A stretch of 64,000 bases of DNA from Acidobacteriota bacterium. GTDB lineage: Bacteria; Acidobacteriota; UBA6911; RPQK01; CBDAPI01. Positions 1 to 41,052 of the stretch are shown here, one piece after another. The first letter of the stretch is position 1, and each line of letters opens with the position of its first letter. The position numbers and the translations under genes are program-made. The notes beneath the pieces are model-generated. The model worked only from the letters and a program-made list of their open reading frames with translations. It was not told the origin of the DNA and made no database searches. Location of the stretch: positions 134,057 through 198,056 of the forward strand of contig CBDFLV010000002.1 in assembly GCA_965249245.1 (NCBI GenBank), written 5' to 3'.

Positions 1-1608
1 GTGGCGGTAGACCTCGGAGGTTCCAATCCGGACGCCTCCCGGATTCAGGGTTGCATCGGAGCGTCCGTAGATAATCATGCCTCCATTCGAGGTCAGCCGG
101 GCCCAGTCCCCGTGACGCCAGACACCGGGAAAGTAATCGAAATAGGCCTTCTGGTACCTGGTCCCGTCCGGGTCATTCCAGAACTTCACCGGCATGGACG
201 GAAAGGCCTGCGAGCAGACCAGTTCCCCTTGCTCCCGCCCGGCTGGCTGGCCGGCCTCGTTAAAGATTTCCACCTTCATTCCCAGGCTCAGAGCCTGCAA
301 CTCGCCGCTGAACACCGCACCGATGGGATTTCCAAGAGCAAAAGAAGAGATGAGATCCGTCCCTCCGGAAATCGAGGAAAGGCAAACATCCGCCTTGATC
401 TGCCCATACACATAGTCAAAGCTGGCCGGGGCCAGGGGCGACCCGGTTGAGAGAATCGTTCGAAGGGACTGCAGATCATGCGTCCGCGACGAGTGGAGCC
501 CGCTCTTCTCGGCCAGGGACAGATATTTGGCACTGGTTCCAAACACGGTCACCTCTTCCTGCTCGACGAGATCGAAAAGAATCCCGGATGGGTGAAAGGG
601 AGCACCATCGTACAGAAGCACCGTCGCTCCCACCGCCAGGCAACTCATCAGCCAGTTCCACATCATCCAGCCACAGGTCGTGGCGTAAAAGACCCTGTCT
701 TCCCTTCTCAGGTCGGTGTTCAGAACCAGTTCCTTGAGATGCTGGATGAGTGTCCCTCCGGCGCCGTGGACCATGCACTTGGGTAAACCTGTTGTGCCCG
801 ACGAATACATGATGTAAAGGGCATGGTCGAAAGGAAGCTGCCGAAAGTCGATCTCCTCGGCCTGACCCGCAAAATCGTTCCACAGTACGGCGTCGGGAAT
901 CCTGGAAATGTCCGGGTTCTCACTCAGATACGGGACGACAACGACCTTTGAAATCTCCGGGATCTGTTCCCGGATCGACCTGACGCGCTCCAGACGATCG
1001 AACGGTTTTCCCGCATAGTGATACCCATCTGCACAGCACAGGATCCTGGGCCGGATCTGTCCGAACCGGTCGACAACTCCTTTGGCGCCGAAGTCCGGAG
1101 AGCAGGACGACCAGAGTGCCCCGAGGCTGCTGGCGCCCAGCATGGCAATGACTGTTTCGGCGATGTTGGGCATAAAGCCGCCCACCCGATCACCGATCTT
1201 GACTCCGGCCCTCTGCAGCGCCCTGGCAAAACCGGCACTTCGCTGAAACAGCTCGGAGTAGGTGAGGATCTGATGGCGGCCTGATTCGTTCCAGCCGATG
1301 ATGGCCGTGCGATCATCCCGGTAGCGGAGCAGGTTCTGTGCGAAATTGAGTCTGGCACCCGAGAACCAGCGCGCACCGGGCATCCTGGTGACATCATCAA
1401 CTACCTGATCCCAAGTTCTAGAGGCTTCTATCCCGCAGAAGTGCCAGACCTCGGGCCAGAACAGTTCAGGATAATCGATCGACCATTTGTAAAGGCTCGG
1501 ATAGTCGCGAACCGCAGGGGCAACCTGACTTATCTTCCGAATGAAGCGAGTCAGATTCGCTCGTTCGACACTCTCCGGTGACGGTTTCCAGAGGCACTTA
1601 GTACTCAA
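1..1608 (-). CDS. Acetoacetyl-CoA synthetase (AMP-forming acyl-CoA ligase); the C-terminal end runs off the window start
   Basis: Continuous minus-strand reading frame with no stop in the window, so it is absent from the ORF track. The reverse complement of 781-822 encodes ALYIMYSSGTTGLP, the AMP-binding motif. The frame continues with FWNDPDG and the N-terminal KCLWKPSPESVERANLTRFIRK, typical of acetoacetate-CoA ligase. The start is probably the TTG at 1606-1608, overlapping the stop of the upstream gene. Confidence 0.8.
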   Translation of the reverse strand, partial: MSTKCLWKPSPESVERANLTRFIRKISQVAPAVRDYPSLYKWSIDYPELFWPEVWHFCGIEASRTWDQVVDDVTRMPGARWFSGARLNFAQNLLRYRDDRTAIIGWNESGRHQILTYSELFQRSAGFARALQRAGVKIGDRVGGFMPNIAETVIAMLGASSLGALWSSCSPDFGAKGVVDRFGQIRPRILCCADGYHYAGKPFDRLERVRSIREQIPEISKVVVVPYLSENPDISRIPDAVLWNDFAGQAEEIDFRQLPFDHALYIMYSSGTTGLPKCMVHGAGGTLIQHLKELVLNTDLRREDRVFYATTCGWMMWNWLMSCLAVGATVLLYDGAPFHPSGILFDLVEQEEVTVFGTSAKYLSLAEKSGLHSSRTHDLQSLRTILSTGSPLAPASFDYVYGQIKADVCLSSISGGTDLISSFALGNPIGAVFSGELQALSLGMKVEIFNEAGQPAGREQGELVCSQAFPSMPVKFWNDPDGTRYQKAYFDYFPGVWRHGDWARLTSNGGMIIYGRSDATLNPGGVRIGTSEVYRH

Positions 1609-2759
1609 CCGACTGCCACACTCCTGATCCGATTCACCGTCTCCACCACCATTTCCAGCGCGTAGTCTATGTCCTCCTGGGTGGTCATCCGGCTCAGGCT
1701 GAAACGGATAGCACCCTGGATTCGACTGCGTCGCAGCTTCATGGCCTGAAGAACGGGGGAAGGGTCCAGTGAGCCGGAGGAACAGGCGGCCCCGGTAGAG
1801 ACCGCTATGCCCTTGAAATCCAGAGCTACCAGAAGCGCCTCACCCTCTACTTTCTCGAAGCTGATGTTGGTCGTGTGAGGCACTCGCCCGCTTCGACTCC
1901 CGTTCACAACAGAGCCGGACAGCCGTTCCAGTATCTCTTTCTCCAACCGGTCGCGAAGGTTCCCAACCCGGTTCTGCATGTCTTCGTGTGCCTCCGCAGC
2001 CAGCTCACAGGCTTCCCCGAGGCCAACGATTCCCGGAACATTCTCGGTCCCGGCCCGCCGATGGCGCTCGTGCGACCCGCCCAGCATGAAAGGTTCCATC
2101 CTCACCGAGTCACGCATATAAAGAGCTCCCACACCCATGGGGCCATGAAACTTGTGTCCCGACAAGGAGAGGAGATCGACGCCCAACTGGTTGACGTCGA
2201 CCGGAATCTTTCCGACGGACTGCACCGCGTCGGTGTGAAAAAGGATCTCCCGCTGCCGCGTGAGCCGGGCGATCTCTGCGATTGGCTGCAGGGTGCCCAC
2301 TTCGTTGTTGGCGTGCATGATCGACACCAGAACCGTGTCTTCCGAAAGCGCCGCTGCTAGATCTTCGACCCGAACGACCCCCTTTTCGCCCGCCGACAGG
2401 CAGGTGACACGGAAGCCCTTCTGTTCCAAAAACTGGCAGCTCTTCAAAACGGCCGGGTGTTCGATCCCCGAGGTGATCACGTGTCCTCTACTGCCGGCGA
2501 ACCTGCGAGCCACTCCCTCGATGGCGGCGTTGTCAGCCTCGGTTCCGCCGCAAGTAAAAATGACCTCGCGTGGCTTTGCTGAAAGAAGATCGGCAACCTG
2601 CGAGCGGGCACGCTCAACGGCCGCACGAGCGTGCTGGCCATAGGCATGAATCGAGGAAGCGTTCCCGAACTGATTCAGGAAGTACGGCTGCATCGCCTCC
2701 GCCACCCGGGGATCCGTGGGACTGGTGGCATTGTTGTCCAGATAAACGCGCCTCTCCAT
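1605..2759 (-). CDS. iscS: Cysteine desulfurase (IscS/NifS family, PLP-dependent)
   Basis: 384-aa ORF containing SGHKFHGP (the PLP-lysine motif) and the C-terminal ACSSGS segment with the active-site cysteine. Confidence 0.9.
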   Translation of the reverse strand: MERRVYLDNNATSPTDPRVAEAMQPYFLNQFGNASSIHAYGQHARAAVERARSQVADLLSAKPREVIFTCGGTEADNAAIEGVARRFAGSRGHVITSGIEHPAVLKSCQFLEQKGFRVTCLSAGEKGVVRVEDLAAALSEDTVLVSIMHANNEVGTLQPIAEIARLTRQREILFHTDAVQSVGKIPVDVNQLGVDLLSLSGHKFHGPMGVGALYMRDSVRMEPFMLGGSHERHRRAGTENVPGIVGLGEACELAAEAHEDMQNRVGNLRDRLEKEILERLSGSVVNGSRSGRVPHTTNISFEKVEGEALLVALDFKGIAVSTGAACSSGSLDPSPVLQAMKLRRSRIQGAIRFSLSRMTTQEDIDYALEMVVETVNRIRSVAVG

Positions 2760-2767
2760 CTCAGTTG

Positions 2768-2810
2768 GTTCCTGGTTATTGGTTATTGGTTACCGGTTCT
2801 GGTTCTTGTT
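2768..2810. repeat. Tandem heptamer array (GGTTATT/GGTTACC/GGTTCTT units)
   Basis: ggttattggttattggttaccggttctggttcttg, seen directly in the divergent region between the iscS start and hsp20. Confidence 0.8.
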
Positions 2811-3042
2811 TCAGCGAGAATACTACCACCTCCAAAGAAGTGTTCCACGTTTCACGGTCCACCTGGCTTCCGGGACACAACGGTAATGCAGTCCTGTTGG
2901 ACCGGGGAAACCGGGAACCATGGACCGAGCCTGACTTGACTGCCCCCAATCGGGATCTTAAATAGAGGTTGCAGCGACGATAGAGTTGGCTGCCTGAAAA
3001 AAATCATGACATTGAATGAAATAAGAAGGAGAAAGTAAGGAA

Positions 3043-3483
3043 ATGACCCTAATGAGAATGGATCCATTTCAAGACCTGCGAGCGTGGAACAATACTTTCG
3101 ATCGTTTCTTCGGGAATCGCGTCGGCCGTGTCGTCGACGAGGACACACATGTGACCCGCTGGTCACCGACGGTCGATGTCTCCGAAACTCCGAACGAGAT
3201 CACTTTTTCGGTCGAGTTGCCGGGGTTTGCCAAGGATGAGATTGACATCTCTCTCGAGGAGAACGTCCTCAGCATCAGTGGTGAGAGGAAGTTCGAGAAC
3301 GAAGAGAGTCGAGATTTCCATCGAGTCGAGCGCTGGTACGGGAGTTTCGGCCGCAGTTTCAAGCTGCCCGCCACGGTGGACAGTTCCAAGATCGACGCCG
3401 GCCTCAAGGATGGCCTGCTGACGATTCACCTCCCCAAGGTTGAGGAAGCGAAACCGCGCCAGATCCCTGTGACAGTCAGTTAA
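3043..3483 (+). CDS. Hsp20/alpha-crystallin family small heat-shock protein
   Basis: 146-aa ORF with alpha-crystallin domain signatures (ITFSVELPGF...GLLTIHLPK). An AAGGAG ribosome-binding site lies upstream. Confidence 0.9.
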   Translation: MTLMRMDPFQDLRAWNNTFDRFFGNRVGRVVDEDTHVTRWSPTVDVSETPNEITFSVELPGFAKDEIDISLEENVLSISGERKFENEESRDFHRVERWYGSFGRSFKLPATVDSSKIDAGLKDGLLTIHLPKVEEAKPRQIPVTVS

Positions 3484-3512
3484 GTACTCACCCTGGTGAG
3501 ACTCTCACCATA

Positions 3513-3545
3513 GAGGGGCGGCCCTGGTGCCGCCCTTTTCTATTT
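3513..3545 (+). terminator. Rho-independent terminator downstream of hsp20
   Basis: GGGCGGCcctggtGCCGCCC hairpin followed by TTTTCTATTTC. Confidence 0.6.
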
Positions 3546-3629
3546 CTGGCAGACGGCGATCACGTCGACTCCCCTGGGCAGCCTTGACACCTCGATGGTA
3601 CTCCGGGCCGGCCGGGAGTCGCCAAAGTA

Positions 3630-3662
3630 AACTTTTAACCTTCAACCTTCAACCTTCAACCC
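3630..3662. repeat. Tandem heptamer array (CCTTCAA x3, the reverse complement of GGTTGAA)
   Basis: aaccttcaaccttcaaccttcaaccc, abutting the left end of the IS element. Confidence 0.8.
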
Positions 3663-5038
3663 TAGCAGCCCGTGGCAGAAGTGCTTAATTGGGTCCGGAC
3701 ACCACCTGGAAAGGGCCCGATTGAAAGTTTTCCAATCAAACCTTCAAAGAAAGTGCTGATCCGTCTCCTCAGGCCCTTCCTCAGCCCGAAAAAGGCTAAC
3801 AAAGCGCAAAGAATCCGGGCGTGGAGGGCCCGGGGAGTCCCTGCGCCGAGTTTCTGGCGCATCACCATACCCAGGTTGAACGCACCGGCCTGAATCAGCA
3901 GTCTCTTGGCCACATTGTCGTGTCCCCTGACCTCGGTGCGGCGCATCCCCCCTGTCCGGTACAGATGAGCAAAGGATCTTTCCAGTTTTTCGCCCCGCCG
4001 TCTCAGTAACTCGCGGCCTCGCTCTCCCCGTATCCGTCTGCGGTTGGCATAGGTGGCATCTCGCCCCTCGATGTTGCCTTTCCACTTGCGTCTGCCCCGC
4101 TTCGGTTCCGAGATGTAACTGCGTATCTGCAGCGCTGCAAAATCCTTTACCGTCTCGGTGCTGTGATATCCCTTGTCGGCCACCACCTCGGCCATTTCCT
4201 TTTTTTGCCCCGTCGCCTCTTCAATGTTTTCGGCAGCACGAATCAGCGTCTCCTTCAGGGTCGTCGTGTCTCCTTTATCGGCTCCCTGTACCGTGACCGC
4301 CACAATCGCTCCCGTCTCCATGTCGATGGCATGCTCGGCCTTGTGGGCCAGGTGCGTTCGCCCGTCCTTCATCTTCGTAATGCGAGCGTCCGGATCGTGA
4401 GGATGTTTCCACTCTTTGTTGGAGCCTTTCTTCTTGCGTTTCCGGTCCGTACGAACCAGGTCTTCGCGGGTGGGCGTCTCGATTCCGGAAGCCTGAGCCA
4501 ATCCGGTTAAAAACTGGTTATAGTCTTCTCCCGTATCCCGTCGGATGATGGTGCGCATCGCCGCATTGGCTTCCAGCGTCGTCGCGTCGATCCCGATCGT
4601 CTTTCCCTTCAGCAGTTCCGATTCCGCCAGTCGCTCCAGCACCCAGCTGAACACCGCCGCATGGGTCTGCACATCGATTAATCTCCGGGTTCTCGATATC
4701 GTCGAGTGATCGGGTGGTGTCTCGCTCACTTTCAATCCCAAAAACTCTCTCAGGGCCAGTGAATCGGCCACTCTCCAGGCAATCCCTCGCTCCGCTCCGA
4801 TCCCTTCAAAATACCCCACCATCAACAGCCGAAAATACACTCCCGGCGCCACGCTCGGCCGCCCCATCTTCTCCGCGTAGAACTTCCCGCACAGCTCCTC
4901 TACGAAATCGTCAAAGCCGTGCTCACTCAATACCTCGTTGAGGGCTTCGTAGAATGGATGCCCAGGACTCCGCGCTAACTGGCTGCTGGCCACCCACAGA
5001 TCCGCTTGTCGCCGTCGCTTCTTCTTTCCCATTGCCAT
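3662..5038 (-). CDS. IS1182-family (IS5 superfamily) DDE transposase
   Basis: 458 aa with an N-terminal DUF772-like region, GIDATTLEANAAM, and a DDE region with ADKGYHS. Confidence 0.8.
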   Translation of the reverse strand: MAMGKKKRRRQADLWVASSQLARSPGHPFYEALNEVLSEHGFDDFVEELCGKFYAEKMGRPSVAPGVYFRLLMVGYFEGIGAERGIAWRVADSLALREFLGLKVSETPPDHSTISRTRRLIDVQTHAAVFSWVLERLAESELLKGKTIGIDATTLEANAAMRTIIRRDTGEDYNQFLTGLAQASGIETPTREDLVRTDRKRKKKGSNKEWKHPHDPDARITKMKDGRTHLAHKAEHAIDMETGAIVAVTVQGADKGDTTTLKETLIRAAENIEEATGQKKEMAEVVADKGYHSTETVKDFAALQIRSYISEPKRGRRKWKGNIEGRDATYANRRRIRGERGRELLRRRGEKLERSFAHLYRTGGMRRTEVRGHDNVAKRLLIQAGAFNLGMVMRQKLGAGTPRALHARILCALLAFFGLRKGLRRRISTFFEGLIGKLSIGPFPGGVRTQLSTSATGC

Positions 5039-5097
5039 GGGACCAGTGTAGTGTCTGAATGTGACCCCTACCCTCGACTTTCACCACAGGCTGCTAG
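3662..5097 (-). mobile_element. IS1182/IS5-like insertion sequence, about 1.44 kb
   Basis: Imperfect terminal inverted repeats CTAGCAGCCCGTGG (3662-3675) and CCACAGGCTGCTAG (5084-5097). Carries a single transposase gene and lies 66 bp from tRNA-Phe. Confidence 0.75.
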
Positions 5098-5162
5098 CCA
5101 CCCGTCACCCCCAGAGTTTGCACGCTCAAAATGATGCGGGTAGAATACAATTCTTTCTCACT

Positions 5163-5235
5163 GCCGGGGTAGCTCAGTCGGTAGAGCAGGGGACTGAAAA
5201 TCCCCGTGTCGGCGGTTCAATTCCGTCCCCCGGCA
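5163..5235 (+). tRNA. tRNA-Phe (anticodon GAA)
   Basis: GCCGGGGTAGCTCAGTCGGTAGAGCAGGGGACTGAAAATCCCC...CCCCGGCA forms a cloverleaf. The anticodon loop CTGAAAA gives anticodon GAA. CCA is not encoded. Confidence 0.9.
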
Positions 5236-5247
5236 CTCCTTATCTCT

Positions 5248-5832
5248 ATGCCCGAACCAGCATCTCGACTCCCCCGATCTTTCTTTGACCGCCCCACCCT
5301 GGAGGTAGCTTCCGATGTGCTGGGCAAGCGTCTGGTCAAGCTCGAGTCCGCCGGCCGGCTGTCAGGCATCATCACTGAGGTGGAAGCCTACATTGGCTCC
5401 GAGGATCAGGCCTGCCACGCCCGCTTTGGGAAGACCAGGCGAAACCGGATCATATGGGGCCCACCCGGCTTCGCCTACATCTATTTCATCTACGGTATGC
5501 ACTGGCTTCTGAACTTCGTGGTGGAGCGGGATCACTTCGCCGCGGCCGTGCTGGTGCGCTCGGTAATGGCGGTGGACGGTCTCGACACCATGCTGCAGCG
5601 ACGAAGTGGCCGCATTCGCAATCTCACCGATGGGCCTGCCAAGGTGTGCCAGGCCTTCGACTTGACTGGAGATGAGAACGGTCTCGACGTCTGTGCGCCG
5701 GAATCGACTCTGTACCTGGAAGAGGGAATCGAGGTGGACTCGGAGAGCATTGAAGCGACGCCCAGGATCGGAATCGACTCCGTTCCCGAACCCTGGAAGA
5801 GCATCCCCTGGCGTTTCAACTGTCGGGTGTGA
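5248..5832 (+). CDS. mpg: DNA-3-methyladenine glycosylase (Mpg/AAG family)
   Basis: FFDRPTLEVASDVLGKRLV...GIITEVEAYIG..DQACHARFGKTRRN...IYFIYGMHWLLN matches the PF02245 pattern. The start is taken at MPEPAS; the ORF-track start lies further upstream. Confidence 0.85.
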   Translation: MPEPASRLPRSFFDRPTLEVASDVLGKRLVKLESAGRLSGIITEVEAYIGSEDQACHARFGKTRRNRIIWGPPGFAYIYFIYGMHWLLNFVVERDHFAAAVLVRSVMAVDGLDTMLQRRSGRIRNLTDGPAKVCQAFDLTGDENGLDVCAPESTLYLEEGIEVDSESIEATPRIGIDSVPEPWKSIPWRFNCRV

Positions 5833-5835
5833 CGG

Positions 5836-5928
5836 GTTGCTGGTTGCTGGTTACTGGTTACTGGTTACTGGTTACTGGTTACTGGTTACTGGTTACTGGT
5901 TGAAAGTTGAAAGTTGAAGGTTGAAGGT
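5836..5928. repeat. Tandem heptamer array (CTGGTTA x7 then GTTGAAA/GTTGAAG units)
   Basis: ctggttgctggttactggttactggttactggttactggttactggttactggttgaaagttgaaagttgaaggttgaagg. Confidence 0.85.
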
Positions 5929-5937
5929 TCGTGGGCT

Positions 5938-6405
5938 GTGGAAGGTGGACTCCGATCACTTCGAACCGGGGGACAAACCGGTGTGGATCGGGCGGTGCTG
6001 GACGCGGCACTGGCGTCGGGCCTGGAGGTCACGGGCTGGTGCCCGAAGGGGCGAAGAGCCGAGGACGGCCCCCTGCATCACCGCTATCCTCTCGAAGAGA
6101 CACCTTCTGCAGATTACGCCCAGCGCACGGAGTGGAACGTGCGCGATTCGGATGGCACGCTGGCTCTCCTTCGCGACAAGTTGGATACCGGCACGGAACT
6201 CACCATCCGTCAGGCCAATCGGCAGTCCCGTCCGCTGCTGCTCATCGACCTGGAGGACCCCCTCGATGCCGCCACGGTCCAGGACTGGATCCGACGTTCG
6301 GGAGTTCAGCACCTGAACATAGCAGGACCGCGAGAAAGCCAGTCTCCTGGCATTTACGAAGCAGCTCGGCCTTTTCTGGAGAAGCTGTTCGTCCACCTTT
6401 TTTAG
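5938..6405 (+). CDS. SLOG-fold YpsA-like protein (family previously annotated as a putative molybdenum carrier protein)
   Basis: TGGQTGVDRAVLDAALASGLEVTGWCPKGRRAEDG matches the PF12694-type signature. The start is uncertain: the ORF-track TTG start lies inside the heptamer array, and the GTG at 5938 is preferred. Confidence 0.55.
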   Translation: MEGGLRSLRTGGQTGVDRAVLDAALASGLEVTGWCPKGRRAEDGPLHHRYPLEETPSADYAQRTEWNVRDSDGTLALLRDKLDTGTELTIRQANRQSRPLLLIDLEDPLDAATVQDWIRRSGVQHLNIAGPRESQSPGIYEAARPFLEKLFVHLF

Positions 6406-6435
6406 AACTTTCCCAGCTCCCCTCCATCTAAGTGA

Positions 6436-6618
6436 CTAGCCCGCATAATTCATAGGGTGCCGAAGCGAAGAGTCGCAAAGTCCGCGCTGGCAAGGCTTTA
6501 CGCGCGAGGGCCCCGCAGGCATAGTCGTGCACTATGCCGAGGAGCCCGAGTGGGGGTAACGCAGCCAGCGCGAGGCTTGGCGGCTCTGCAGCCGGCAGTT
6601 TATGAATTATGCGGGCTA
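6436..6618. repeat. MITE-like or structured-RNA-like repeat element, copy A (about 183 bp)
   Basis: Perfect 18-bp terminal inverted repeats TAGCCCGCATAATTCATA / TATGAATTATGCGGGCTA. The GC-rich core is about 80% identical to the second copy at 40790-40976 and contains the hairpin GGCATAGtcgtgcaCTATGCC and the inverted pair GCGCTGGC...GCCAGCGC. Confidence 0.7.
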
Positions 6619-6939
6619 GGGACCAGGCGATGTCCCGGGAAGCTGGCAGTGATTGCGAACGACTTCGGTTACAAGCGACCGGAGTCTGGCTCGAGAGGTG
6701 GGACAATGAAGAACGAAGCGAACAACGACCGAAAACTGCTCCCTTCGAAAGACTTGAGAAAGCCGCCCAGCTGGACGTTATCCAAGTCGGACCGGCGATT
6801 TCTCCACTCCTGCAACATCTCTCCCTGAGGTTACAGGTTGAAGGTTGATCGGAGACTTTCCGGGTCCCGGGGGAGGAGAGTTCAAAGTACCAGGTCCGAG
6901 ATCTCAGACCTGGACGAGAAACTTTCAACTTTTAGCGCG

Positions 6940-7698
6940 TCAAGAGGGAGTTCCCACAATCTCAATCTGGGCAATCGTGATGTTGTCCAGGCCGCCCCGG
7001 CGATTGGCTTCGGCCACCAGCTCGTTTCCGGCCTGTGCCAGGGCGTTTTCTTTGAGCAGGGTTTCGATCTCATCGTCCGCGAGTGCATCCGACAAGCCGT
7101 CGGTACAGATGAGCAACCGGTCCTCGGCAGCAACCTGCACCTCAAAGACGTCGGGGTCAATCGTTTTAGTGATTCCCAGGGAGCGTTCCAGGAGGTTCTT
7201 TTGCGGGTGCTGGCGAATCTGGTCTTTGGTCAGTTCTCCCTGCTGGTAAAGCTTGTAGACCGGGGAGTGATCGTCGGTCACCTGGGAGATCGACCCGTCG
7301 TGAAGATGGTAGATGCGGCTGTCCCCCAGGTGAAGCACCCAGATTTCACCGTGTTCCCTTGAAATCCACACGACACTGACCGTCGTTCCCATTCCTCTCA
7401 TGACGGGGTTTTCCATCTGCTCCCTGAGGATCCTCTGGTTAGCAAGTTCGAGGCACTCCCTGAGGAATTCCCGGACCGGCCCTCTGGCCTTCTCGATTTC
7501 CTCGGTGATGGTCCGAGACGCAATCGCGCTGGCCACTTCACCTGCGGCGTGGCCTCCCAGGCCATCACAGACTCCAAAGAGACCGGATTCGGGAGCATCG
7601 ATGAGTGCATCCTCGTTATTCTGACGAACCCTCCCCACATCAGTGATGGAATGGCTTCGAAACTGAAAAGGTCCGCAACGGCAGGTGGGGAGACTCAT
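6940..7698 (-). CDS. PP2C-family Ser/Thr protein phosphatase
   Basis: 252 aa with GVCDGLGGHAAGEVAS, the TDGLSD metal-binding motif and GGLDNIT. Confidence 0.85.
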   Translation of the reverse strand: MSLPTCRCGPFQFRSHSITDVGRVRQNNEDALIDAPESGLFGVCDGLGGHAAGEVASAIASRTITEEIEKARGPVREFLRECLELANQRILREQMENPVMRGMGTTVSVVWISREHGEIWVLHLGDSRIYHLHDGSISQVTDDHSPVYKLYQQGELTKDQIRQHPQKNLLERSLGITKTIDPDVFEVQVAAEDRLLICTDGLSDALADDEIETLLKENALAQAGNELVAEANRRGGLDNITIAQIEIVGTPS

Positions 7699-7965
7699 TC
7701 TTCTCTCACTCGATCACGAATGAGCTGCACTAGTCCCAAAATAAGCGTGTTTGCACATCATCTACTGTAGCGACTCGTTTTGCCAAGATCGGTTGCTCAT
7801 TTGAGGTTCAATCAGACTTGCGCCGGACTCCGGCTGTGCCGGGAAGCAGTTTGGTTGACCTCAGGCCGCCACGACGCGTTGACAATGGCCCTGAAAGTCG
7901 GTTTTCAGACAGACCCCTCCCCGATCGGCTCCATTTGTCGTCTTGTCGAAGCGGCTTGCGATTCG

Positions 7966-8535
7966 TCAGCCAAATTGCTGGTGTTTCAGCCACAGATTCC
8001 CCTCGATCAACAAACGGGTCCAATCGTTAACAGTGAGCAGTCGATACAATAAACGCCGTCCCGTTGTCACGATCTGGCAAGGCAGTCCGATCACACAGGT
8101 GACAAAGCGCCGGAACTCCATCCGGATCAGGCGTCGGGCCCCCAGTCTTGCAGGCAAAAGCAGGCCCAGCCAAACCTTGAGGTTCCAGGCTTGGGCGGCA
8201 ATCACCAGGTAAGTCCAGTTTGCGACCAGGGTATCGGCCGGCATGCGCAGAGCCTGAACGCCGTTCTTGAGCTGCTCGATCACGTTTTCCTGATTGCAGC
8301 GCCCGTTGCTTTCCAAAACCACCTGTTGTGTCGACAGTTCCTTGACCGGCACGTTCGTGACATAGAACAGATAGCGCTGCTGATCAAACAGCCGCTTTTG
8401 ACCCTTTTCGACCTCGATCCTCTTGCGCAGGATGATCATTCGGTAGGTGCCTTTAGCTCGGGCCGGTCGGTACTCGATCTCCGTCACATGCTCACTCAAC
8501 AAGTTCAGGTTTTTGTAGCCCCGCTCTCGCACCAA
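7966..8535 (-). CDS. Transposase, C-terminal fragment (DDE domain with a GxAEN..IEQLKNG-type motif)
   Basis: 189 aa containing RCNQENVIEQLKNGVQALRMP, typical of IS1380/IS4-type DDE transposases. Together with 8505..9317 it makes about 450 aa, so the gene is probably a pseudogene or carries a sequencing frameshift. Confidence 0.6.
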   Translation of the reverse strand: MVRERGYKNLNLLSEHVTEIEYRPARAKGTYRMIILRKRIEVEKGQKRLFDQQRYLFYVTNVPVKELSTQQVVLESNGRCNQENVIEQLKNGVQALRMPADTLVANWTYLVIAAQAWNLKVWLGLLLPARLGARRLIRMEFRRFVTCVIGLPCQIVTTGRRLLYRLLTVNDWTRLLIEGNLWLKHQQFG

Positions 8536-9317
8536 CGATCGAAGTTGCGGGTCAGGGAAAAGTCCGTGTCTCCCCGCAATCTCACTTGCTCAAAGCCGCC
8601 TCTTCTGACCAGTTTCACGGCTCGATCGATCCACGCCACCGCTCCTTCGTGCGACGGTCGGCTGGCCGGCCGATTGAACGTGTACAAGACCTCGTTGGTT
8701 TCGGCCAGACTCACCACCAAGGGTCCATACCCCCATTGTCCCTTGTAGTTGAGATCCATCCCTTCCTTGCAACACCCCGTGGTCTCGGCCGTCGTGCCGT
8801 CCACGTCGATCGTGGCTCGCTTGCCCATCTCCGCTGCTTGGCTTTGCCACACCTGCAGACGGCTTTCGTTGAAGGCTTCTTGCAGGGCCAAGACATCCTC
8901 TTGCTTGAAACGCCTGAGAAAGTCCCCTTCCGTACTCGGTGCCGGGATCTTGCGCGCTCCTACACTCTCCAGATAGCTGACATCCTCGCGCCGTGACTTT
9001 ACATCCTGCAGGCACACTCCCCCACTCATCACGTTGTAGATCAGATTCAAGACGTGGTCCGACTCCCGGTAGGGAAGGTGCCGCTTCAACACTCGCACAC
9101 GTTCGTCGATCCTCTCCGCCACCCTCAAGCGCTTGACCAACTGAACAATCAGCCCCAGACCTCCACTACTCACCCCTCCCATACGGCTCGAGACGTCGTA
9201 GACAATATTGCCTCCTCTCAGCACCCGTCCCCCACTCTTAGGCCGCCAACTTCGATCCAGCCTTCGCTCTATTTCCTCTTGGCGTTTGTTGATAATCTCG
9301 ATATGCTTTCTATTCAC
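8505..9317 (-). CDS. Transposase, N-terminal fragment (a frameshift separates it from 7966..8535)
   Basis: 270 aa ending RWCESGATKT. It overlaps the downstream ORF by 31 bp in another frame at an A-rich stretch (reverse complement gggctacaaaaacc). Confidence 0.6.
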   Translation of the reverse strand: MNRKHIEIINKRQEEIERRLDRSWRPKSGGRVLRGGNIVYDVSSRMGGVSSGGLGLIVQLVKRLRVAERIDERVRVLKRHLPYRESDHVLNLIYNVMSGGVCLQDVKSRREDVSYLESVGARKIPAPSTEGDFLRRFKQEDVLALQEAFNESRLQVWQSQAAEMGKRATIDVDGTTAETTGCCKEGMDLNYKGQWGYGPLVVSLAETNEVLYTFNRPASRPSHEGAVAWIDRAVKLVRRGGFEQVRLRGDTDFSLTRNFDRWCESGATKT

Positions 9318-9599
9318 CTGAAACGCCTCCTCTTGGGATTGTTCTGGGTCTTTTTCTGAACCTCAGAATACCCGTCAGGACTGGCGTTTCAGGCTTTTTT
9401 CCACCTCTGGGTATACACCCCATGTACTTATTTTGGGACTAGTGCACTGTCCGGAAAGTTCACGCCGCTACTTCGGGCGTCTTTTCGCCGACAGCTTTGT
9501 TGCGCTTCCTCGAAAGACTCCCGGCCTTCCTGCGTCGCGCGCCTCACTGTCGACGAAAATCCATCCAGAATTAACACCGCGAACTTCCCGGACAGCACA

Positions 9600-9818
9600 C
9601 TAGAACTTGTCCAGTCCCTGCATCAATTGAAGATTGCATCTCACAAAACCGTAGCCAATGATAACCAGCAGCGCCCAGGCCCCAGCTTTTTTCCAGAGCG
9701 GCTGGGTCAGCTGGTAGCCACAATAGGGGCATTTCGCCGTTCCGTCAGGCACAGTGTAGTCACAATTCCGACACACTTCCATCACCGAGTCTCTTTTCCG
9801 GAGGCGGAATGACGACAA
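9600..9818 (-). CDS. Small zinc-ribbon membrane protein (hypothetical)
   Basis: CRNCDY...CPYCGY (CxxC...CxxC) followed by a hydrophobic helix WALLVIIGYGFV. Lies immediately downstream of ligA on the same strand. Confidence 0.4.
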   Translation of the reverse strand: MSSFRLRKRDSVMEVCRNCDYTVPDGTAKCPYCGYQLTQPLWKKAGAWALLVIIGYGFVRCNLQLMQGLDKF

Positions 9819-9827
9819 TGCAATGAA

Positions 9828-11864
<2,037 letters not shown>

Positions 11865-11883
11865 CTATAGCACGCATCTTTTC

Positions 11884-12126
11884 TTGAATTTGGTATCATG
11901 GCCCCACATGAGTTCGACGGTAGTCAGTCGCTTCTCTTTTATGGTGGTATTTCCCTTTCAGGAGGTGAACTCTACTCATGTCCCCCTGCTGAGGCTCCAC
12001 TCGCTGGCTCGCAAGCAGATGAACGATACTGAAATCATCGAGACTATCGACCACCTGTTCAAATGCCCTCGGTGTCTGGACAATTATCGGAGAGTGCGGG
12101 CCGGCTATCCGAAGTGTTGTCGCTGA
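11884..12126 (+). CDS. Hypothetical small Cys-containing protein (start uncertain)
   Basis: ORF-track 80 aa ending DHLFKCPRCLDNYRRVRAGYPKCCR. No strong ribosome-binding site was identified, so the call is weak. Confidence 0.2.
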   Translation: MNLVSWPHMSSTVVSRFSFMVVFPFQEVNSTHVPLLRLHSLARKQMNDTEIIETIDHLFKCPRCLDNYRRVRAGYPKCCR

Positions 12127-12156
12127 AGCCTTCGCGGATCAGAGTCAGACGTCGAA

Positions 12157-13053
12157 ATGCAGCTGTTTGATGTTCGAGCGTTCCGGTTCTTCGGAAACCG
12201 GGATTTCTGGCGTCAACTCTGGATGAATTTCAACGACGACCACTGCTGGGGCATGGCCGCTGAGTTGGCCTTCTGTTTTCTGCTGGCCTTTTTCCCATTT
12301 CTCATATTCCTGGGGGGACTGCTGGCTCTGCTTCCGATCGAGCTCATGACTTTCACTCGTCTGGTGGATGGGCTGACCCGCTTGATGCCCAGCCAGGCGG
12401 GTGTCGAGATCAGCCAGGTGCTGGCCAACGCCGAGGGCTGGAAAGCTGCTTCCCGCTCGGCTGTTTTGTGGATGGGGATTGCTCTGTGGGTGTCGTCACT
12501 GGCTTTGAGCGGGCTGGCCGGGGTGCTGACCCGAGCCTACCGGATGAAGGAAAGACGCTCCTTTTATCGGATCCGTGCCCTCTCCATAGTCGTTACGGTA
12601 GGGATGTGTTTCTTTGTTTTGATCGCGGCAGTGCTCCTTTTTTTTGGCGATGACCTGAGCCGGTGGGCGATCTCGAACCTGCCTTTCACTGAGCAGAGCC
12701 CGTTTCACAAGTTGATGACCCTCGGCTATACCATGGTTCGGTGGTTGCTGATCTTCGTGCTCATCAGCCTGGGCCTGCAAACGGTCTACTTCGCTATGCC
12801 GGCCAGCCCTTTACCCTGGAGAGTGATATCCCCAGGAAGCTTTGCCATAACGATTGGAGTCGTCGGAGGCTCTCTCGGCTTCCGCTACTTCGCCAGTAGC
12901 TTCTCCAGTTACAACAATATGTACGGAGACCTGGGAGGTCTTCTTGTCCTCATGATCTGGTTCTACTATTGCAGTCTGTTCCTGCTTCTGGGCGGTCAGA
13001 TTGATTCCACCGCCTTTCGAATCAGCCAAAGACGTGAAAAAGTCCTGCAATGA
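12157..13053 (+). CDS. YihY/BrkB (virulence factor BrkB / RNase BN-like) family membrane protein
   Basis: 298 aa, polytopic, with LAFCFLLAFFPFLIFLGGLL and other family-typical hydrophobic segments. Confidence 0.8.
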   Translation: MQLFDVRAFRFFGNRDFWRQLWMNFNDDHCWGMAAELAFCFLLAFFPFLIFLGGLLALLPIELMTFTRLVDGLTRLMPSQAGVEISQVLANAEGWKAASRSAVLWMGIALWVSSLALSGLAGVLTRAYRMKERRSFYRIRALSIVVTVGMCFFVLIAAVLLFFGDDLSRWAISNLPFTEQSPFHKLMTLGYTMVRWLLIFVLISLGLQTVYFAMPASPLPWRVISPGSFAITIGVVGGSLGFRYFASSFSSYNNMYGDLGGLLVLMIWFYYCSLFLLLGGQIDSTAFRISQRREKVLQ

Positions 13054-13077
13054 TGGCACTCGCTGTGGCTCATGGCT

Positions 13078-13107
13078 GGTTGAAGGTTGAAAGTTGAAAG
13101 TTGGAAT
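13078..13107. repeat. Tandem heptamer array (GGTTGAA/AGTTGAA)
   Basis: ggttgaaggttgaaagttgaaagttggaat. Confidence 0.8.
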
Positions 13108-13195
13108 GTGGGAGGCGCCTTGGCGCGGCGACCTGAAATCGTGAACGTGACCACCCGGCGTTCGCGGCCTGAGGCCCCTCCCACTTCCAGGATCC

Positions 13196-13225
13196 CCAGA
13201 ACCTAGAACCCAGAACCCAGAACCC
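13196..13225. repeat. Tandem heptamer array (CCAGAAC/CTAGAAC)
   Basis: ccagaacctagaacccagaacccagaaccc. Confidence 0.8.
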
Positions 13226-13238
13226 TTATGATCGGACC

Positions 13239-14051
13239 GTGTCGAGACGCTGCATCACCTTTCTGAGTGATTTTGGTCAGCGAGACTACTATGTCGCTTC
13301 GGTCAAGGGAGTCATTCTCGATGTCTGTCCCGAGATGACTATTGTTGATATCAGCCATGCCGTGGAGCCTCACAACATCGTAGAGGCCGCCTTTACGCTG
13401 GCGGCCGCCTACCCCTGTTTTCCGGCAGGCTCGCTTCATCTTGTGGTCGTTGATCCTGGCGTCGGATCGGACCGCAAAGCCATCATCGCCCGGGCGGACG
13501 AGCATGCCTTTGTGGCTCCGGACAACGGAGTGCTGTCACTGATCTTTGAACGGGAAGAGATGACCGAAGTCGTCGAGATTCAGAACGAGAGCTTCTTCCG
13601 AAAGCCGGTTTCGCCGACCTTCCACGGAAGGGACATTTTTGCCCCCGTCATCGCCCATCTTGCCCGCGGCGTTCCAATTGCCGAGTTCGGGCCAGTCAGC
13701 ACGAATTTCGTGACGGTGGATTTGGGCTCCGTTCGCTGTGAAGACCCTGACACCGTTCGAGGCAAGGTGATTCACATCGACCATTTTGGGAACCTGATCA
13801 CGAACATCCAGACTTCTCATCTGAGCGAGCCGCCTGACGGCGCAAGGTCGAGACAAGTTGTTGAAATCGATGGAAAGAAGATTGACAAGCACTACGATTA
13901 CTACGCCGAAGGGAACCCCGAGGAAATCTTTTCAATCATGGGAAGCAGCGGTCGTCTCGAGATTGCCGCTTGCTCGAGCTCAGCTTCCAGGCTTCTGGGC
14001 CTGGGAGTCGGAGCCGAGGTAAGGGTCAGAAGTGTACTCACAGAGGGTTAA
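13239..14051 (+). CDS. SAM hydroxide adenosyltransferase family protein (DUF62, SAM-cleaving)
   Basis: ITFLSDFGQRDYYVASVKGVI...LHLVVVDPGVGSDRKAI matches the PF01887 pattern. Confidence 0.8.
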   Translation: MSRRCITFLSDFGQRDYYVASVKGVILDVCPEMTIVDISHAVEPHNIVEAAFTLAAAYPCFPAGSLHLVVVDPGVGSDRKAIIARADEHAFVAPDNGVLSLIFEREEMTEVVEIQNESFFRKPVSPTFHGRDIFAPVIAHLARGVPIAEFGPVSTNFVTVDLGSVRCEDPDTVRGKVIHIDHFGNLITNIQTSHLSEPPDGARSRQVVEIDGKKIDKHYDYYAEGNPEEIFSIMGSSGRLEIAACSSSASRLLGLGVGAEVRVRSVLTEG

Positions 14052-14382
14052 GCAACTCGTAGCGGAACTTCGTTATAGCGGGCAGCTGGCCGAAGCCACA
14101 CACAGGGGTCACAGCGAGAACCCGGTGTGCGGGGATCTAACCAGCTTTGAACTGCGAGTGCAGGACGAAAAGGTGGCCGGCTGCCGGTTTCGTGCGACAG
14201 GCTGTGTGGCCGCGATTGCGGCGGCAGCGGCGCTGGCTGAAATGTGCCAGGATCAGCCGGTCCGGGACTGTCTACAGATTACCTGTGAAGACCTTCTCAA
14301 AGATCTGGGCTCACTCCCCACACACAAGATCCACGGCGTAAATCTGGCCCTGGAGGCTCTGAGAGAGGCACTCCACCGATAA
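14032..14382 (+). CDS. NifU/IscU-like Fe-S cluster scaffold domain protein
   Basis: ENPVCGD...RATGCVAAIAAAAALAEM...PTHKIHGVNLALEAL carries the conserved Cys/His positions of the IscU/SufU N-terminal domain. Overlaps the upstream gene by 20 bp. Confidence 0.6.
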   Translation: MYSQRVKQLVAELRYSGQLAEATHRGHSENPVCGDLTSFELRVQDEKVAGCRFRATGCVAAIAAAAALAEMCQDQPVRDCLQITCEDLLKDLGSLPTHKIHGVNLALEALREALHR

Positions 14383-14401
14383 GCACTCACCCGCTTTGAC
14401 G

Positions 14402-15157
14402 TCAGACACGGCACAGGAAGAAATGCTCCCGATTGCCTTTCTGCCCGGCTCTCGAAGAGGGAGTATCGGCCAGGACTTCGACTCCCAGTTCCCTCAGGCC
14501 ATCCCTGAGCCGCTCGATCACGCAGGTCCGGACGGCGTCATCAGTGATCAATCCGCCCGCCTCGACTTCGGATCGCCTGGCTTCAAACTGGGGCTTTACC
14601 AGCGCCACAATAGTCGCCGGTGATACCCGGATGAGTCCCGGTAGCACCAGGCGCAAGGAAATAAATGAAAGATCGACAGTGATGAGGTCCGGTTTCTCGC
14701 CGATGACCTCCGGGTCCAGGTAGCGAACGTTGATCCCGTCGCGCCGGATCACCCGCTCATCCTTCTGCAGGTTCCAGTGAAGCTGCCCTCGACCGACATC
14801 GACCGCATACACCCTGGCGGCACCTTCTTGAAGGAGACAATCCGTGAATCCTCCGGTTGAAGCACCCAGGTCCCAGCAGACTCGTCCACGGGCACTCACC
14901 TGAAAAGTGCGAAGAGCCCCCTCCAATTTGGCTCCCGCTCTCGACACATAGCGGCCGGCGGTCTTCTTCACCCGCAACTCGGCGTCGGCCTTGACCTGTG
15001 TGCCCGCCTGGTCAACACGCTGGCTCTCGACCAGGACCGCACCCCTGAGAATCAGAGCGGCAGCTTGCTTCCGGTCCGAAGCAAGCCCTCTCCTGACTAG
15101 AAGGTCGTCCAGCCGGAAGCGCCCGGCTCCGGCTCTCGATTTCCGACTCATCGGCAC
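14402..15157 (-). CDS. tlyA: TlyA-family rRNA 2'-O-methyltransferase (hemolysin A-like)
   Basis: N-terminal S4 domain plus an FtsJ-like methyltransferase domain (VCWDLGASTGGFTDCLL). Confidence 0.85.
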   Translation of the reverse strand: MPMSRKSRAGAGRFRLDDLLVRRGLASDRKQAAALILRGAVLVESQRVDQAGTQVKADAELRVKKTAGRYVSRAGAKLEGALRTFQVSARGRVCWDLGASTGGFTDCLLQEGAARVYAVDVGRGQLHWNLQKDERVIRRDGINVRYLDPEVIGEKPDLITVDLSFISLRLVLPGLIRVSPATIVALVKPQFEARRSEVEAGGLITDDAVRTCVIERLRDGLRELGVEVLADTPSSRAGQKGNREHFFLCRV

Positions 15158-15180
15158 AACCTCGACCTAACCCCGGCCAT

Positions 15181-16101
15181 TCAAAAACGCCGCAGCGACA
15201 GGAAGCGGGCCAGTTCTCTAAGGATGTCCCCGCGTGAGCCCAAAAACTCCAGGTGCTGGATGGCTTCTTCCACAAGTCGCGTAGCGATTTGCTTGCTCTT
15301 GCTCAGACCGAACAGATGGGGATAGGTAGCCTTTCGCACTTCCCGATCTTTGCCGGTTTCCTTACCCATTTCCTCACAGGAACCCTCCACATCGAGGATG
15401 TCATCGACCACCTGAAAGGCCAGTCCCACCCGGGAGGCGAATGCCGAGAGTTCTTCCAGTTCCTGATCGTCTGCCTCGCACAGCACGGCGGCACAGTACA
15501 CGGAGGAAAGAATCAGGGCAGCCGTTTTCGATTCGTGAATGTACTCCAGCTCTTCGGCGGTGTAGGGTTTTCCCTGAGCGAGAAGGTCCGCCACCTGACC
15601 GGCAATCATTCCGCCCAGGGTCCCGATCGCCCTCGAAAGCAAGGCGATGACTTTCAGTTGCCTTTTTGCTTCCACTTGATGTGGCTGCGCAGCCAGATGC
15701 TGAAAGGCCAGAGTCAGCAGGGCATCCCCCGCCAAAACAGCAATCCCTTCCCCAAACTGTTTGTGCAGGGTAGGTCTTCCCCGCCGGTAATCGTCGTCAT
15801 CCATGGAGGGCAAATCGTCATGGATCAACGAATAGGTGTGGGTGAGTTCCAGGGCGGCGACCAGCGGCATGACCGGTGCCACTGGCCTTTCCAGGGCCTG
15901 GGCTGTGGCGAGGGCGAGAATAGGCCGCACCCTTTTTCCGCCGGCGAAGACCGAGTAGCGCATGGCCCTGTGAATCACGCCAGGATGAGTTTCCCCGTGG
16001 GGCAGAACATCGTCCAGATAGCGATCCACCCGAGAGCGATGCTCGGCCAGGTACCGGACAAGGTCAAAGGAGTGGTTGCCGGGCTCGCTATTTGCCACCA
16101 C
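15181..16101 (-). CDS. ispA: Polyprenyl diphosphate synthase (farnesyl/geranylgeranyl diphosphate synthase)
   Basis: Two aspartate-rich motifs: LIHDDLPSMDDDDYRRG and a second DD motif in VVDDILD. Confidence 0.85.
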   Translation of the reverse strand: MVANSEPGNHSFDLVRYLAEHRSRVDRYLDDVLPHGETHPGVIHRAMRYSVFAGGKRVRPILALATAQALERPVAPVMPLVAALELTHTYSLIHDDLPSMDDDDYRRGRPTLHKQFGEGIAVLAGDALLTLAFQHLAAQPHQVEAKRQLKVIALLSRAIGTLGGMIAGQVADLLAQGKPYTAEELEYIHESKTAALILSSVYCAAVLCEADDQELEELSAFASRVGLAFQVVDDILDVEGSCEEMGKETGKDREVRKATYPHLFGLSKSKQIATRLVEEAIQHLEFLGSRGDILRELARFLSLRRF

Positions 16102-22062: not shown

Positions 22063-22085
22063 GTTGGAGCCAGATCGCGGCCGAT

Positions 22086-22152
22086 TCAGGCCGGATCCCC
22101 TTCAGGCCGGATCCCCCTCAGGCCGGATCCCCTTCAGGCCGGATCCTCCTCA
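22086..22152. repeat. 16-mer x4 tandem repeat (CAGGCCGGATCCCCTT) filling the pccB-pccA intergenic spacer
   Basis: caggccggatcccctt caggccggatccccct caggccggatcccctt caggccggatcctcct, ending at the pccB stop codon. Confidence 0.85.
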
Positions 22153-27874: not shown

Positions 27875-27927
27875 GGTTCCAAGTTCCACGAACCTTTAAC
27901 CTTTAACCTTCAACCAGTAACCAGCAA
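27875..27927. repeat. Tandem heptamer array (GTTCCAA, CCTTTAA, CCTTCAA, CAGTAAC units)
   Basis: ggttccaagttccacgaacctttaacctttaaccttcaaccagtaaccagcaac, lying between the convergent gene ends of thrC and the nucleosidase. Confidence 0.8.
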
Positions 27928-30773: not shown

Positions 30774-30829
30774 GATTGAAGATTGAAGATTGAAGATTGA
30801 AAATGATTCGCTTCGCTCATTGCGGTTCC
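30774..30829. repeat. Heptamer array (GATTGAA x4) followed by the conserved motif ATTCGCTTCGCTCATTGCGGTTCC
   Basis: gattgaagattgaagattgaagattgaaaatgattcgcttcgctcattgcggttcc. Confidence 0.8.
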
Positions 30830-40762: not shown

Positions 40763-40789
40763 AAATTATTCGCCTCGCTCATTGCGGCT
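40750..40789. repeat. Heptamer array (GATTGAA/AATTGAA) plus the conserved motif ATTCGCCTCGCTCATTGCGGCTCC
   Basis: cagattgaaaattgaaaattattcgcctcgctcattgcggctcc. The array supplies the last codons (LQIEN, stop) of the upstream gene. Confidence 0.8.
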
Positions 40790-40976: not shown

Positions 40977-41019
40977 GCGGGGTTGCTCACAGCCAGATCG
41001 GAACTCGAAACAGGGGCAT

Positions 41020-41052
41020 CAACTTTCAACCTTCAACTTTAAACTTTAAACC
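41020..41052. repeat. Tandem heptamer array (CAACTTT, CAACCTT, AAACTTT)
   Basis: caactttcaaccttcaactttaaactttaaacc. Confidence 0.8.

Follow-up and report, generated by a model that had tools for sequence, protein, structure and literature searches.

Short tandem arrays of 7-nt units lie between the genes of a 64,000 nt stretch from the genome of an uncultured, soil-type member of the Acidobacteriota (contig CBDFLV010000002.1, positions 134,057 to 198,056; 'the window' hereafter, all coordinates being those of the window). We characterized these arrays as, quite probably, heptanucleotide simple sequence repeats (SSRs, microsatellites) whose units form a family specific to the lineage, R-G-T-T-N-(A/C)-A (RGTTNMA), and which are resized by slippage. 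The arrays run head to tail without spacers in at least three copies, they account for an excess of period 7, they are non-coding and they vary by whole units, as heptanucleotide SSRs do.

Detection with Tandem Repeats Finder (TRF) along with an exact-run and a windowed detector gave 13 period-7 arrays spread over 11 spacers; TRF output contained 12 rows of period 7, and the other two detectors concurred. With a stringent detector (at least three copies, no more than one mismatch) we saw nine period-7 arrays in the window; 50 shuffles that preserved dinucleotides gave 0.04 on average and never more than 1. At other periods the same detector found one array each for periods 5 and 6 and none for periods 8–12. 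The sites at 40750 (2.4 copies) and 6830 (∼3 copies) are weak taken alone. A laxer detector placed all of its 11 arrays outside open reading frames (ORFs) of at least 100 aa; such DNA makes up 10.4% of the window, and 6.6% of it is occupied by arrays. Once the arrays were masked, lag-7 autocorrelation of the non-coding DNA was back at baseline, which rules out hidden widespread decayed arrays. At other loci of the same species (L187–L192, 128 kb) all six arrays of the RGTTNMA family were situated outside called genes; three further, weaker period-7 matches had other units, and two of these overlap or sit inside called genes.

Brought into a common phase, the units of the window (GGTTGAA, GGTTACT, GTTCCAA, GGGTTCT and GATTGAA among them) follow the consensus RGTTNMA. 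Their mean minimal pairwise distance was 2.38 versus 3.17 ± 0.12 for random intergenic heptamers, with none of 2000 resamplings as low. An earlier note on this DNA, made from its letters alone, had listed twelve sites with arrays of related units. All twelve turned out to hold period-7 arrays, by TRF as well as by reading each of them, and the relatedness of the units is borne out by the distances; one site, 27875–27927, proved to be two arrays of opposite orientation. The note had also set aside a CRISPR array, rightly: CRISPR repeats of at least 23 nt alternate with unique spacers, whereas the units here are 7 nt long and contiguous. As single copies elsewhere in the window the unit words were not over-represented, which rules out an uptake sequence or a Chi-like genome word. 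Units of the type RGTTCRA bear some resemblance to the T-loop box of tRNA.

From ENA, NCBI and JGI assemblies we collected 32 loci (L161–L192), found via a 99%-identical protein cluster, bactofilin, NrdR and the transposase of an insertion sequence (IS). Twenty-six of them (L161–L186) align with the window, and L187–L192 are other regions of the same species. The aligned loci mostly differ from the window by 0.3–2 substitutions per kb, L171–L173 and L186 being ∼2% diverged. A scan of JGI metagenomes returned only relatives at ≤59% identity, mostly Chloroflexota, and gave no information on strain variation.

The composite array at 5835–5930 takes up the 98 nt that separate a methylpurine-DNA glycosylase gene from a cpYpsA-like gene and consists of three abutting plus-strand sub-arrays: GGTTGCT ×2 (5835–5848), GGTTACT ×7 (5849–5897) and RGTTGAA ×4.5 (5898–5930). 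Among strains with 100%-identical anchor flanks the number of GGTTACT units was 4, 4, 5, 8, 10, 10, 11 and 18, compared with 7 in the window; in the clade with 98% identical flanks (L171–L173) it was 3, 2 and 2. The number of AGTTGAA units ranged from 0 to 4 across strains. The units were nearly always perfect, the outer impure units were conserved and the flanks were intact. Whole-unit differences in copy number thus occur between strains with 99.8–100% identical flanks, and the earlier description of the arrays as microsatellite-like and length-polymorphic holds.

Short arrays were far more stable; seven of 12 sites were invariant among strains and four changed by whole units. In L164 the array at 3630 has one unit fewer and the array at 13078 has two extra AGTTGGA units; the array at 2768 lacks one unit in L171–L173, the clade at 2% divergence. 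At 47119 the window itself is one unit short in comparison with nine of ten strain-level relatives, the tenth (L176) having an additional irregular 5-nt insertion. No change was seen in the arrays at 6829–6850 (seven strains), 13195–13225, 27875 and 30774 (L184 and L185), 41019–41051 (five strains) and 52255–52285 (six strains).

As the instability depends on array length and purity and proceeds in steps of seven, slipped-strand mispairing is the best explanation. Whole 7-nt units are gained and lost as arrays originate, lengthen, shorten and degrade, which is the signature of this process in replication or repair; the rate climbs steeply with the number of perfect copies. Since 7 is not a multiple of 3, a change of length inside a gene would shift the reading frame; non-coding DNA should then be the only place where arrays last, above all the spacers under least constraint, i.e. 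those behind stop codons or between convergent genes. That period 7 and an RGTT core are preferred may reflect the replication or repair machinery of the lineage, from which a cellular function need not follow. Most arrays are probably without a required function; the two arrays in mRNA leaders (2768 and 13196) might influence expression incidentally.

The individual arrays were compared with their counterparts in seven syntenic metagenome-assembled genomes (L001–L007; window positions 1–16100, protein identity 55–93%); a scan of species-representative genomes with the glycosylase protein put the window among uncultured Acidobacteriota, the best relatives being 79–81% identical in this protein. 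The array at 2767–2810 (GGTTCCT, GGTTATT ×2, GGTTACC, GGTTCT ×2; plus strand) lies in the leader of an aminotransferase gene, and its first unit is the complement of the Shine–Dalgarno sequence of that gene, AGGAAC. At the orthologous site there is one copy in L001, two in L003, three in L002 and about six in the window; the founding unit, CGTTCCT/GGTTCCT, complements the gene's Shine–Dalgarno sequence. Close by, upstream of the HSP20 promoter (TTGACT ... TAAATA), we observed an inverted pair of GTTCCAC-type arrays (2842–2862 forward, 2898–2926 reverse). This GTTCCAC/GTGGAAC pair encloses a conserved core of ∼35–40 nt; it is intact in L001 (8620–8720) and L003 (8975–9050) and decayed in the window, and it could be a regulatory palindrome.

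The array at 3630–3661 (minus strand; GGTTGAA ×3 followed by GGTTAAA/AGTT) adjoins an IS element and is older than it. Between HSP20 and tRNA-Phe, a gene of the RidA/L-PSP family is intact in L171–L173 (9303–9686) and in L001; in the clade of the window it has been deleted to a C-terminal remnant (3520–3629) that ends exactly at this array, which suggests that the array served as the end-point of the deletion.

The composite spacer 3′ of the glycosylase gene contains in L004 one GGTTACG, 2.5 copies of GGTTGAA and three of CGTGGAA; relative to L004 the window has expanded the first two unit types, and CGTGGGCTGTGGAAGGTGGAC in the window corresponds to the three CGTGGAA units, decayed by point mutation. 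In L003 there was no array downstream of this gene. The next spacer, between the convergent cpYpsA and PP2C phosphatase genes, holds GGTTACA GGTTGAA GGTTGAT (6829–6850, plus strand).

Past a BrkB-family gene, 24 nt beyond its stop codon, four units GGTTGAA/AGTTGAA occupy 13078–13107 (plus strand); after the same gene the unit is GGGTTCT in L001 and L002. The array at 13195–13225, GGGTTCT/AGGTTCT ×4.4 on the minus strand (CCCAGAA on the plus strand), is located upstream of a SAM (S-adenosylmethionine) hydroxide adenosyltransferase gene, 13 nt from its GTG start. Its counterpart (CCCAGAA/CCTAGAA) was seen in four species (the window, L001, L002 and L003) with 2.5–6 copies.

One convergent spacer is filled by two arrays placed head to head: GGTTCCA AGTTCCA (27875–27890, plus strand), after the stop codon of a plus-strand pyridoxal phosphate (PLP)-dependent enzyme gene, and GGTTAAA ×2, GGTTGAA, GGTTACT and GGTTGCT (27891–27928, minus strand), abutting the stop of a minus-strand phosphorylase-family gene (27928–28533). 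GATTGAA ×4 (30774–30801, plus strand) begins 2 nt past the stop of a DUF2062 gene and is followed by the motif TCGCTTCGCTCATTGCGG. At 40750–40769 (GATTGAA AATTGAA AATTAT; plus strand) the first unit provides the last codon and the TGA stop (GAT TGA) of a 687-aa BNR/sortilin-like gene, and the same 18-nt motif follows; the earlier note had several arrays supplying last codons, which is true of this array and of no other. GGTTTAA AGTTTAA AGTTGAA GGTTGAA AGTTG (41019–41051, minus strand) abuts the stop of a minus-strand RDD-family gene (41052–42017), and (C/A)GTTCCA ×4 (47119–47147, plus strand) lies 27 nt past the stop of a CitMHS transporter gene. ATTCCAA ×3.7 (52255–52285, minus strand; AATTTGG on plus) separates a 1173-aa TPR/FG-GAP gene from a Rieske gene and has the 18-nt motif on its minus-strand 3′ side.

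The syntenic species thus have arrays in the same spacers, with copy numbers that differ and units that sometimes do. Stringent period-7 arrays occurred at a density of 0.14 per kb in the window, 0.09 in the six closest species and 0 in L007, compared with 0.01 per kb in 1.1 Mb of other genomes (mostly Chloroflexota) and 0.004 per kb in unrelated metagenome contigs; in relatives at 57–77% protein identity arrays are nearly absent. A few other genomes have heptamers of their own (GATACTC, GAGTGCT, GGGGTTC). As density falls with distance and a few other genomes possess their own heptamers, the arrays of the window are a lineage-specific bloom of a general phenomenon. Long arrays of other units (TGGACGA, GATACTC/ACTCGAT, GGGGTTC, GAGTGCT) were observed in unrelated Chloroflexota and Deferrisomatales (L012 10573–10633, L050 10562–10780, L019 5393–5680), in two cases directly 3′ of the same glycosylase gene. 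In the window itself we also saw a 16-nt unit, TCAGGCCGGATCCCCY, repeated 4.2 times head to tail at 22085–22153 between two minus-strand genes; it belongs to a class distinct from the heptamers.

The arrays are distributed unevenly among the types of spacers. Convergent spacers hold six arrays in 1.1 kb and co-directional spacers six in 4.3 kb; the seven divergent spacers (1.3 kb) hold one. Convergent spacers are thus enriched (six arrays in 1.1 kb versus seven in 5.6 kb elsewhere), in agreement with the earlier statement that the arrays are non-coding and favor 3′-ends of genes and convergent spacers. The claim that nearly all arrays come immediately after stop codons or between convergent genes went too far on stop codons: about eight follow one, those at 2768 and 13196 are start-proximal, and the one at 52255 is roughly equidistant from both neighboring genes. 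To call the arrays a genome-wide punctuation system was likewise an overstatement, as most spacers have no array, orthologous sites are empty in some sister species and arrays are rare in distant relatives.

Orientation is also biased. With 'forward' defined as the strand reading RGTTNMA, eight of the nine arrays adjacent to 3′-ends in the window were forward on the sense strand of that gene, the exception being 6830; the start-proximal arrays 2768 and 13196, positioned 6–13 nt upstream of start codons, were forward on the antisense strand. Arrays within one spacer thus face each other. At L187–L192, with gene calls taken from databases, four of five 3′-proximal arrays were in sense orientation and one leader array was antisense. 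For the window and L187–L192 together, 12 of 14 arrays at 3′-ends were sense-oriented (one-sided binomial ∼0.006); the polarity also agrees at loci of the sister species, for which rough gene models were made in this analysis. A common rule of G>C skew as the basis of the polarity was rejected since it fails for GTTCCAM units. The polarity probably means that one orientation is selected against near ORF boundaries.

Several observations weigh against slippage as the full account. It leaves unexplained that independent arrays share one unit family; that they are polarized, with 12 of 14 arrays at 3′-ends sense and leader arrays antisense; that a spacer keeps its array from species to species even where the unit type differs; and that most short arrays have about four units. 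In addition, the strains are known from metagenome assemblies, of which some have low coverage (2x for L169), so that individual copy numbers may be in error. With the RGTT core, the polarity and the persistence in spacers unaccounted for, there is room for a factor that recognizes the sequence or for a constraint acting on the RNA, which we judge, all such possibilities taken together, to be unlikely.

One could speculate that the arrays are cis-acting sites of a lineage-specific nucleic-acid-binding factor that reads successive heptads, slippage tuning the number of sites. The factor might be a cold-shock or S1-type RNA-binding protein acting at 3′ untranslated regions and leaders, or a DNA-binding protein with one dimer per heptad. 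A shared unit family, an orientation bias relative to ORF boundaries, the enrichment in convergent spacers and the retention of arrays at orthologous spacers despite a change of unit would all fit such a factor; so would the unrelated heptamers of Xanthomonas and Nostoc, which obey the same polarity rule, and the TAACTGA repeats discussed below, for which binding proteins were proposed. However, no candidate protein was found; one site has 2–18 copies (4–18 among near-identical strains) with no sign of constraint; some sister species have no array at orthologous sites, and at 57–77% protein identity hardly any are present; the neighboring genes share no function, and single units are not enriched. 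On balance we regard a binding factor, with its candidate proteins included, as rather doubtful. We are as hesitant about a broader proposal, that RGTTNMA arrays are strand-polarized markers of ORF boundaries, kept or generated by an unrecognized heptad-register mechanism shared across phyla; it is suggested by the recurrence of the polarity rule for the heptamers of Xanthomonas, Nostoc and (in leaders) Beggiatoaceae.

Arrays could also be parts or by-products of mobile or palindromic elements, either as outer arms of elements resembling repetitive extragenic palindromes (REPs) or MITEs (miniature transposable elements with inverted repeats), or as footprints of 7-bp target-site duplications. 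Head-to-head pairs of arrays often flank a hairpin or a MITE: the arrays 13078 and 13196 enclose the palindrome GTGGGAGG...CCTCCCAC, and the arrays 40750 and 41020 enclose a 186-nt MITE. Inverted pairs with the same unit on both sides occur in L001, L002 and L003; the motif TCGCYTYGCTYATTGCGR comes after four arrays, and IS copies adjoin arrays twice. Most arrays, however, have no common flanking sequence and solo arrays are common; strain-level changes are internal gains and losses of units with no element present, and the IS at 3630 was inserted beside a pre-existing array. Repeated 7-bp target-site duplication is accordingly unnecessary, since units are gained and lost without any element. 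We consider an origin of this kind improbable; a link to mobile or palindromic elements exists for some arrays and is not general.

The elements themselves are as follows. An IS5/IS1182-like element at 3666–5093 has the target duplication CTAG (3662–3665 and 5094–5097) and terminal repeats CAGCC(C/T)GTGG; its transposase ORF reaches the end of the element, and the stop codon is supplied by the duplicated CTAG. The element is present only in the window strain; ten relatives (L161–L170) have an empty site and the same array there, so that the array came first and an association of the 3630 array with the IS is ruled out. Contact of this array with a stop codon is then an accident, because the IS was inserted beside the array in the window strain. 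Over 50 contigs of the clade carry the same transposase, and another copy, in L189, also adjoins a heptamer array; the period-5 matches at L187–L192 represent one site inside copies of the same IS. A MITE-like element of ∼186 nt has two copies, 79–84% identical (6436–6621 and 40790–40976), with terminal inverted repeats of 27–29 nt (e.g. CCTTAACCTGGGAAATTCATAAGTTTTCG); both are in convergent spacers that also carry heptamer arrays. Four independent heptamer arrays have the 18-nt motif TCGCYTYGCTYATTGCGR immediately on their 3′ side; its occurrences are 30808–30825 (+), 40770–40787 (+), 52236–52253 (−), a weaker one at 47152–47165 (+) and L171 9801–9818 (−). There were three matches to it in the window versus 0.18 expected, and its translation in the same frame would read I-R-F/L-A-H/Y-C-G/D-S; it may represent the end of an element, the beginning of a small ORF or a binding site. 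A strong palindromic element at 13108–13184 (GTGGGAGGCGCC ... GGCCCCTCCCAC; RNA fold z = −3.5) lies between the arrays 13078 and 13196. Related AAGTGGGAGGGGCCTCAG hairpins were seen in other spacers of L002, L004 and L005, pointing to a REP-like family. A gene with a DruA (Druantia defence) domain repeatedly comes after an IS66-family transposase gene in strain-level relatives (L174 3815–6294, L177 6469–8948, L190 3700–8965); the two appear to be mobile as one unit, inserted in the CitMHS transporter gene, of which the window has an intact copy.

A role in transcription termination or insulation, the arrays being unconventional terminators or loading sites of Rho for transcripts entering from outside, seems very unlikely to us. 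Most arrays are indeed just past stop codons or in convergent spacers, and canonical terminators are scarce: in the first 20 kb terminator-like sites (hairpin and T-run) were no commoner than in shuffles, the sole convincing terminator following HSP20. Nevertheless, the earlier suggestion of terminators or attenuators fails for intrinsic ones. None of the terminator-like sites of these 20 kb overlaps an array, and arrays showed no secondary structure beyond that of shuffled controls (z from −1.7 to +1.9); the sole array spacer with strong folding owes it to the separate palindrome between the arrays 13078 and 13196. Lacking hairpins and T-runs, the arrays are not intrinsic (Rho-independent) terminators. 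In a search of the window with Rfam covariance models only two tRNAs reached the gathering score. As to Rho, the reverse complement of most units is C>G (e.g. TTCAACC, C-rich and G-poor), but the skew is reversed in GTTCCAM units, Rho utilisation sites are usually longer than a tract of 28 nt, and several arrays are between co-directional, probably co-transcribed genes 18–98 nt apart (5836, 30774).

We give equally little credence to contingency loci, i.e. phase-variation or rheostat loci that switch or tune the adjacent gene. The copy-number polymorphism is real, the arrays 2768 and 13196 are in mRNA leaders beside the ribosome-binding site, and a functional heptanucleotide SSR has a precedent in hmwA of Haemophilus influenzae (PMC8262952). 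Contingency loci are found in genes for surface or host-interaction functions, within the ORF or the promoter; for most arrays here neither the location nor the class of gene is of this kind. The array that varies most is located downstream of a gene for DNA repair, the majority lie 3′ of genes, and those in leaders show little or no variation between strains. The flanking genes (aminotransferase, HSP20, DNA glycosylase, transporter, PLP enzyme, Rieske protein, TPR proteins) have no common theme. Since these neighbors are ordinary housekeeping genes, classic contingency loci are unlikely; with seven of 12 sites invariant, the slipped-strand contingency proposed in the earlier note is not supported in its classic form.

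Slippage microsatellites of this kind have a wider interest, as heptanucleotide repeats have long been known in bacteria (1990–2007) and their cause and function are still poorly understood. The lineage is an unusually clean natural data set: among many near-identical strains one array spans 2–18 units, so that hypermutability is directly visible in strain data, and the sister species show birth of arrays, switching of units and decay at the same spacers. A polarity known from Proteobacteria and Cyanobacteria is thereby seen again, with other units, in a third phylum. For uncultured Acidobacteriota the arrays are ready-made markers for strain typing, as well as a reason for caution in assembly and binning of genomes.

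We compared the arrays with known heptamer systems. In the cyanobacterial short tandemly repeated repetitive (STRR) sequences the units of STRR1–3 are CCCCAGT, TTGGTCA and CAACAGT. The units of the window differ from these, and the arrays are not STRR sensu stricto. The omega repressor of plasmid pSM19035 binds contiguous 7-bp operator or centromere heptads, direct or inverted, of the unit WATCACW, with one dimer per heptad. The likeness lies in the contiguous 7-bp units, and it indicates that a register of heptads can serve as a code for protein binding; unlike the arrays, the omega heptads are plasmid-borne and located at promoters, and no such protein or promoter association was seen in the window.

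According to two later papers (PMC4679880, PMC4692102), heptamer repeats were first described in Calothrix (PCC7601) in 1990, and Mrazek in 2007 found heptanucleotides to be the commonest class of long SSR in many bacterial genomes and proposed polymerase slippage. As far as these repeats (long SSRs with units of 5–11 nt, LSSR5-11, and STRR) are described there, the window arrays resemble them in having head-to-tail 7-nt units, a strong excess of period 7 relative to adjacent periods, a mostly intergenic location, lineage-specific units and a host among free-living bacteria with large genomes; they differ in the phylum, Acidobacteriota, and in the unit family, RGTTNMA.

The closest parallel in position is provided by Rehm et al. 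2015 (PMC4692102), who described GGGAATC in Xanthomonas and GGGGA(C/T)T in Nostoc as non-coding repeats with typically about four units. These heptamers are depleted between divergent genes and are found on the coding strand after stops and on the non-coding strand before starts; their length and sequence vary among close relatives, and the neighboring genes have no common function (PMC4692102). The window arrays share these traits, the polarity and the depletion in divergent spacers included. The Xanthomonas and Nostoc units have G3–4 tracts and form G-quadruplexes in vitro (PMC4692102), whereas most units of the window have no more than GG, and GATTGAA and AATTGAA cannot contribute to a quadruplex. 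A G3 tract was seen only in the array at 13195–13225 (GGGTTCT, minus strand); a general G-quadruplex role is ruled out, as most units have no G tracts.

The TAACTGA repeats of marine Beggiatoaceae, some Cyanobacteria and Bacteroidetes (MacGregor 2015, PMC4679880) occur in sets of 2–6 closely upstream of start codons; ∼87% of those in Beggiatoaceae point towards start codons, one exact unit dominates, and binding proteins were proposed for them (PMC4679880). They have AAC on the sense strand, and the leader arrays of the window are alike, with TAACCAA TAACCAA before the aminotransferase start. However, the window arrays mostly follow stop codons and have another unit and a degenerate family; no TAACTGA array was present in the window, and two to three of the 13 arrays are start-proximal. 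The (ATCTTTC)n repeat of hmwA in H. influenzae is a phase-variable heptamer between promoters with a graded effect on expression (PMC8262952). It, too, is a tandem array of 7-nt units in which slippage alters the copy number, but it is a single long array (13–24 units) in the promoter of an adhesin gene, in contrast to many short arrays mostly 3′ of housekeeping genes in the window.

We found no earlier description of heptamer arrays in Acidobacteriota. Because the general features of the class are present, but neither the units of any named family nor the G tracts of quadruplexes, the arrays of the window are a new example of the bacterial heptanucleotide SSR (STRR-like) class and not a new system.

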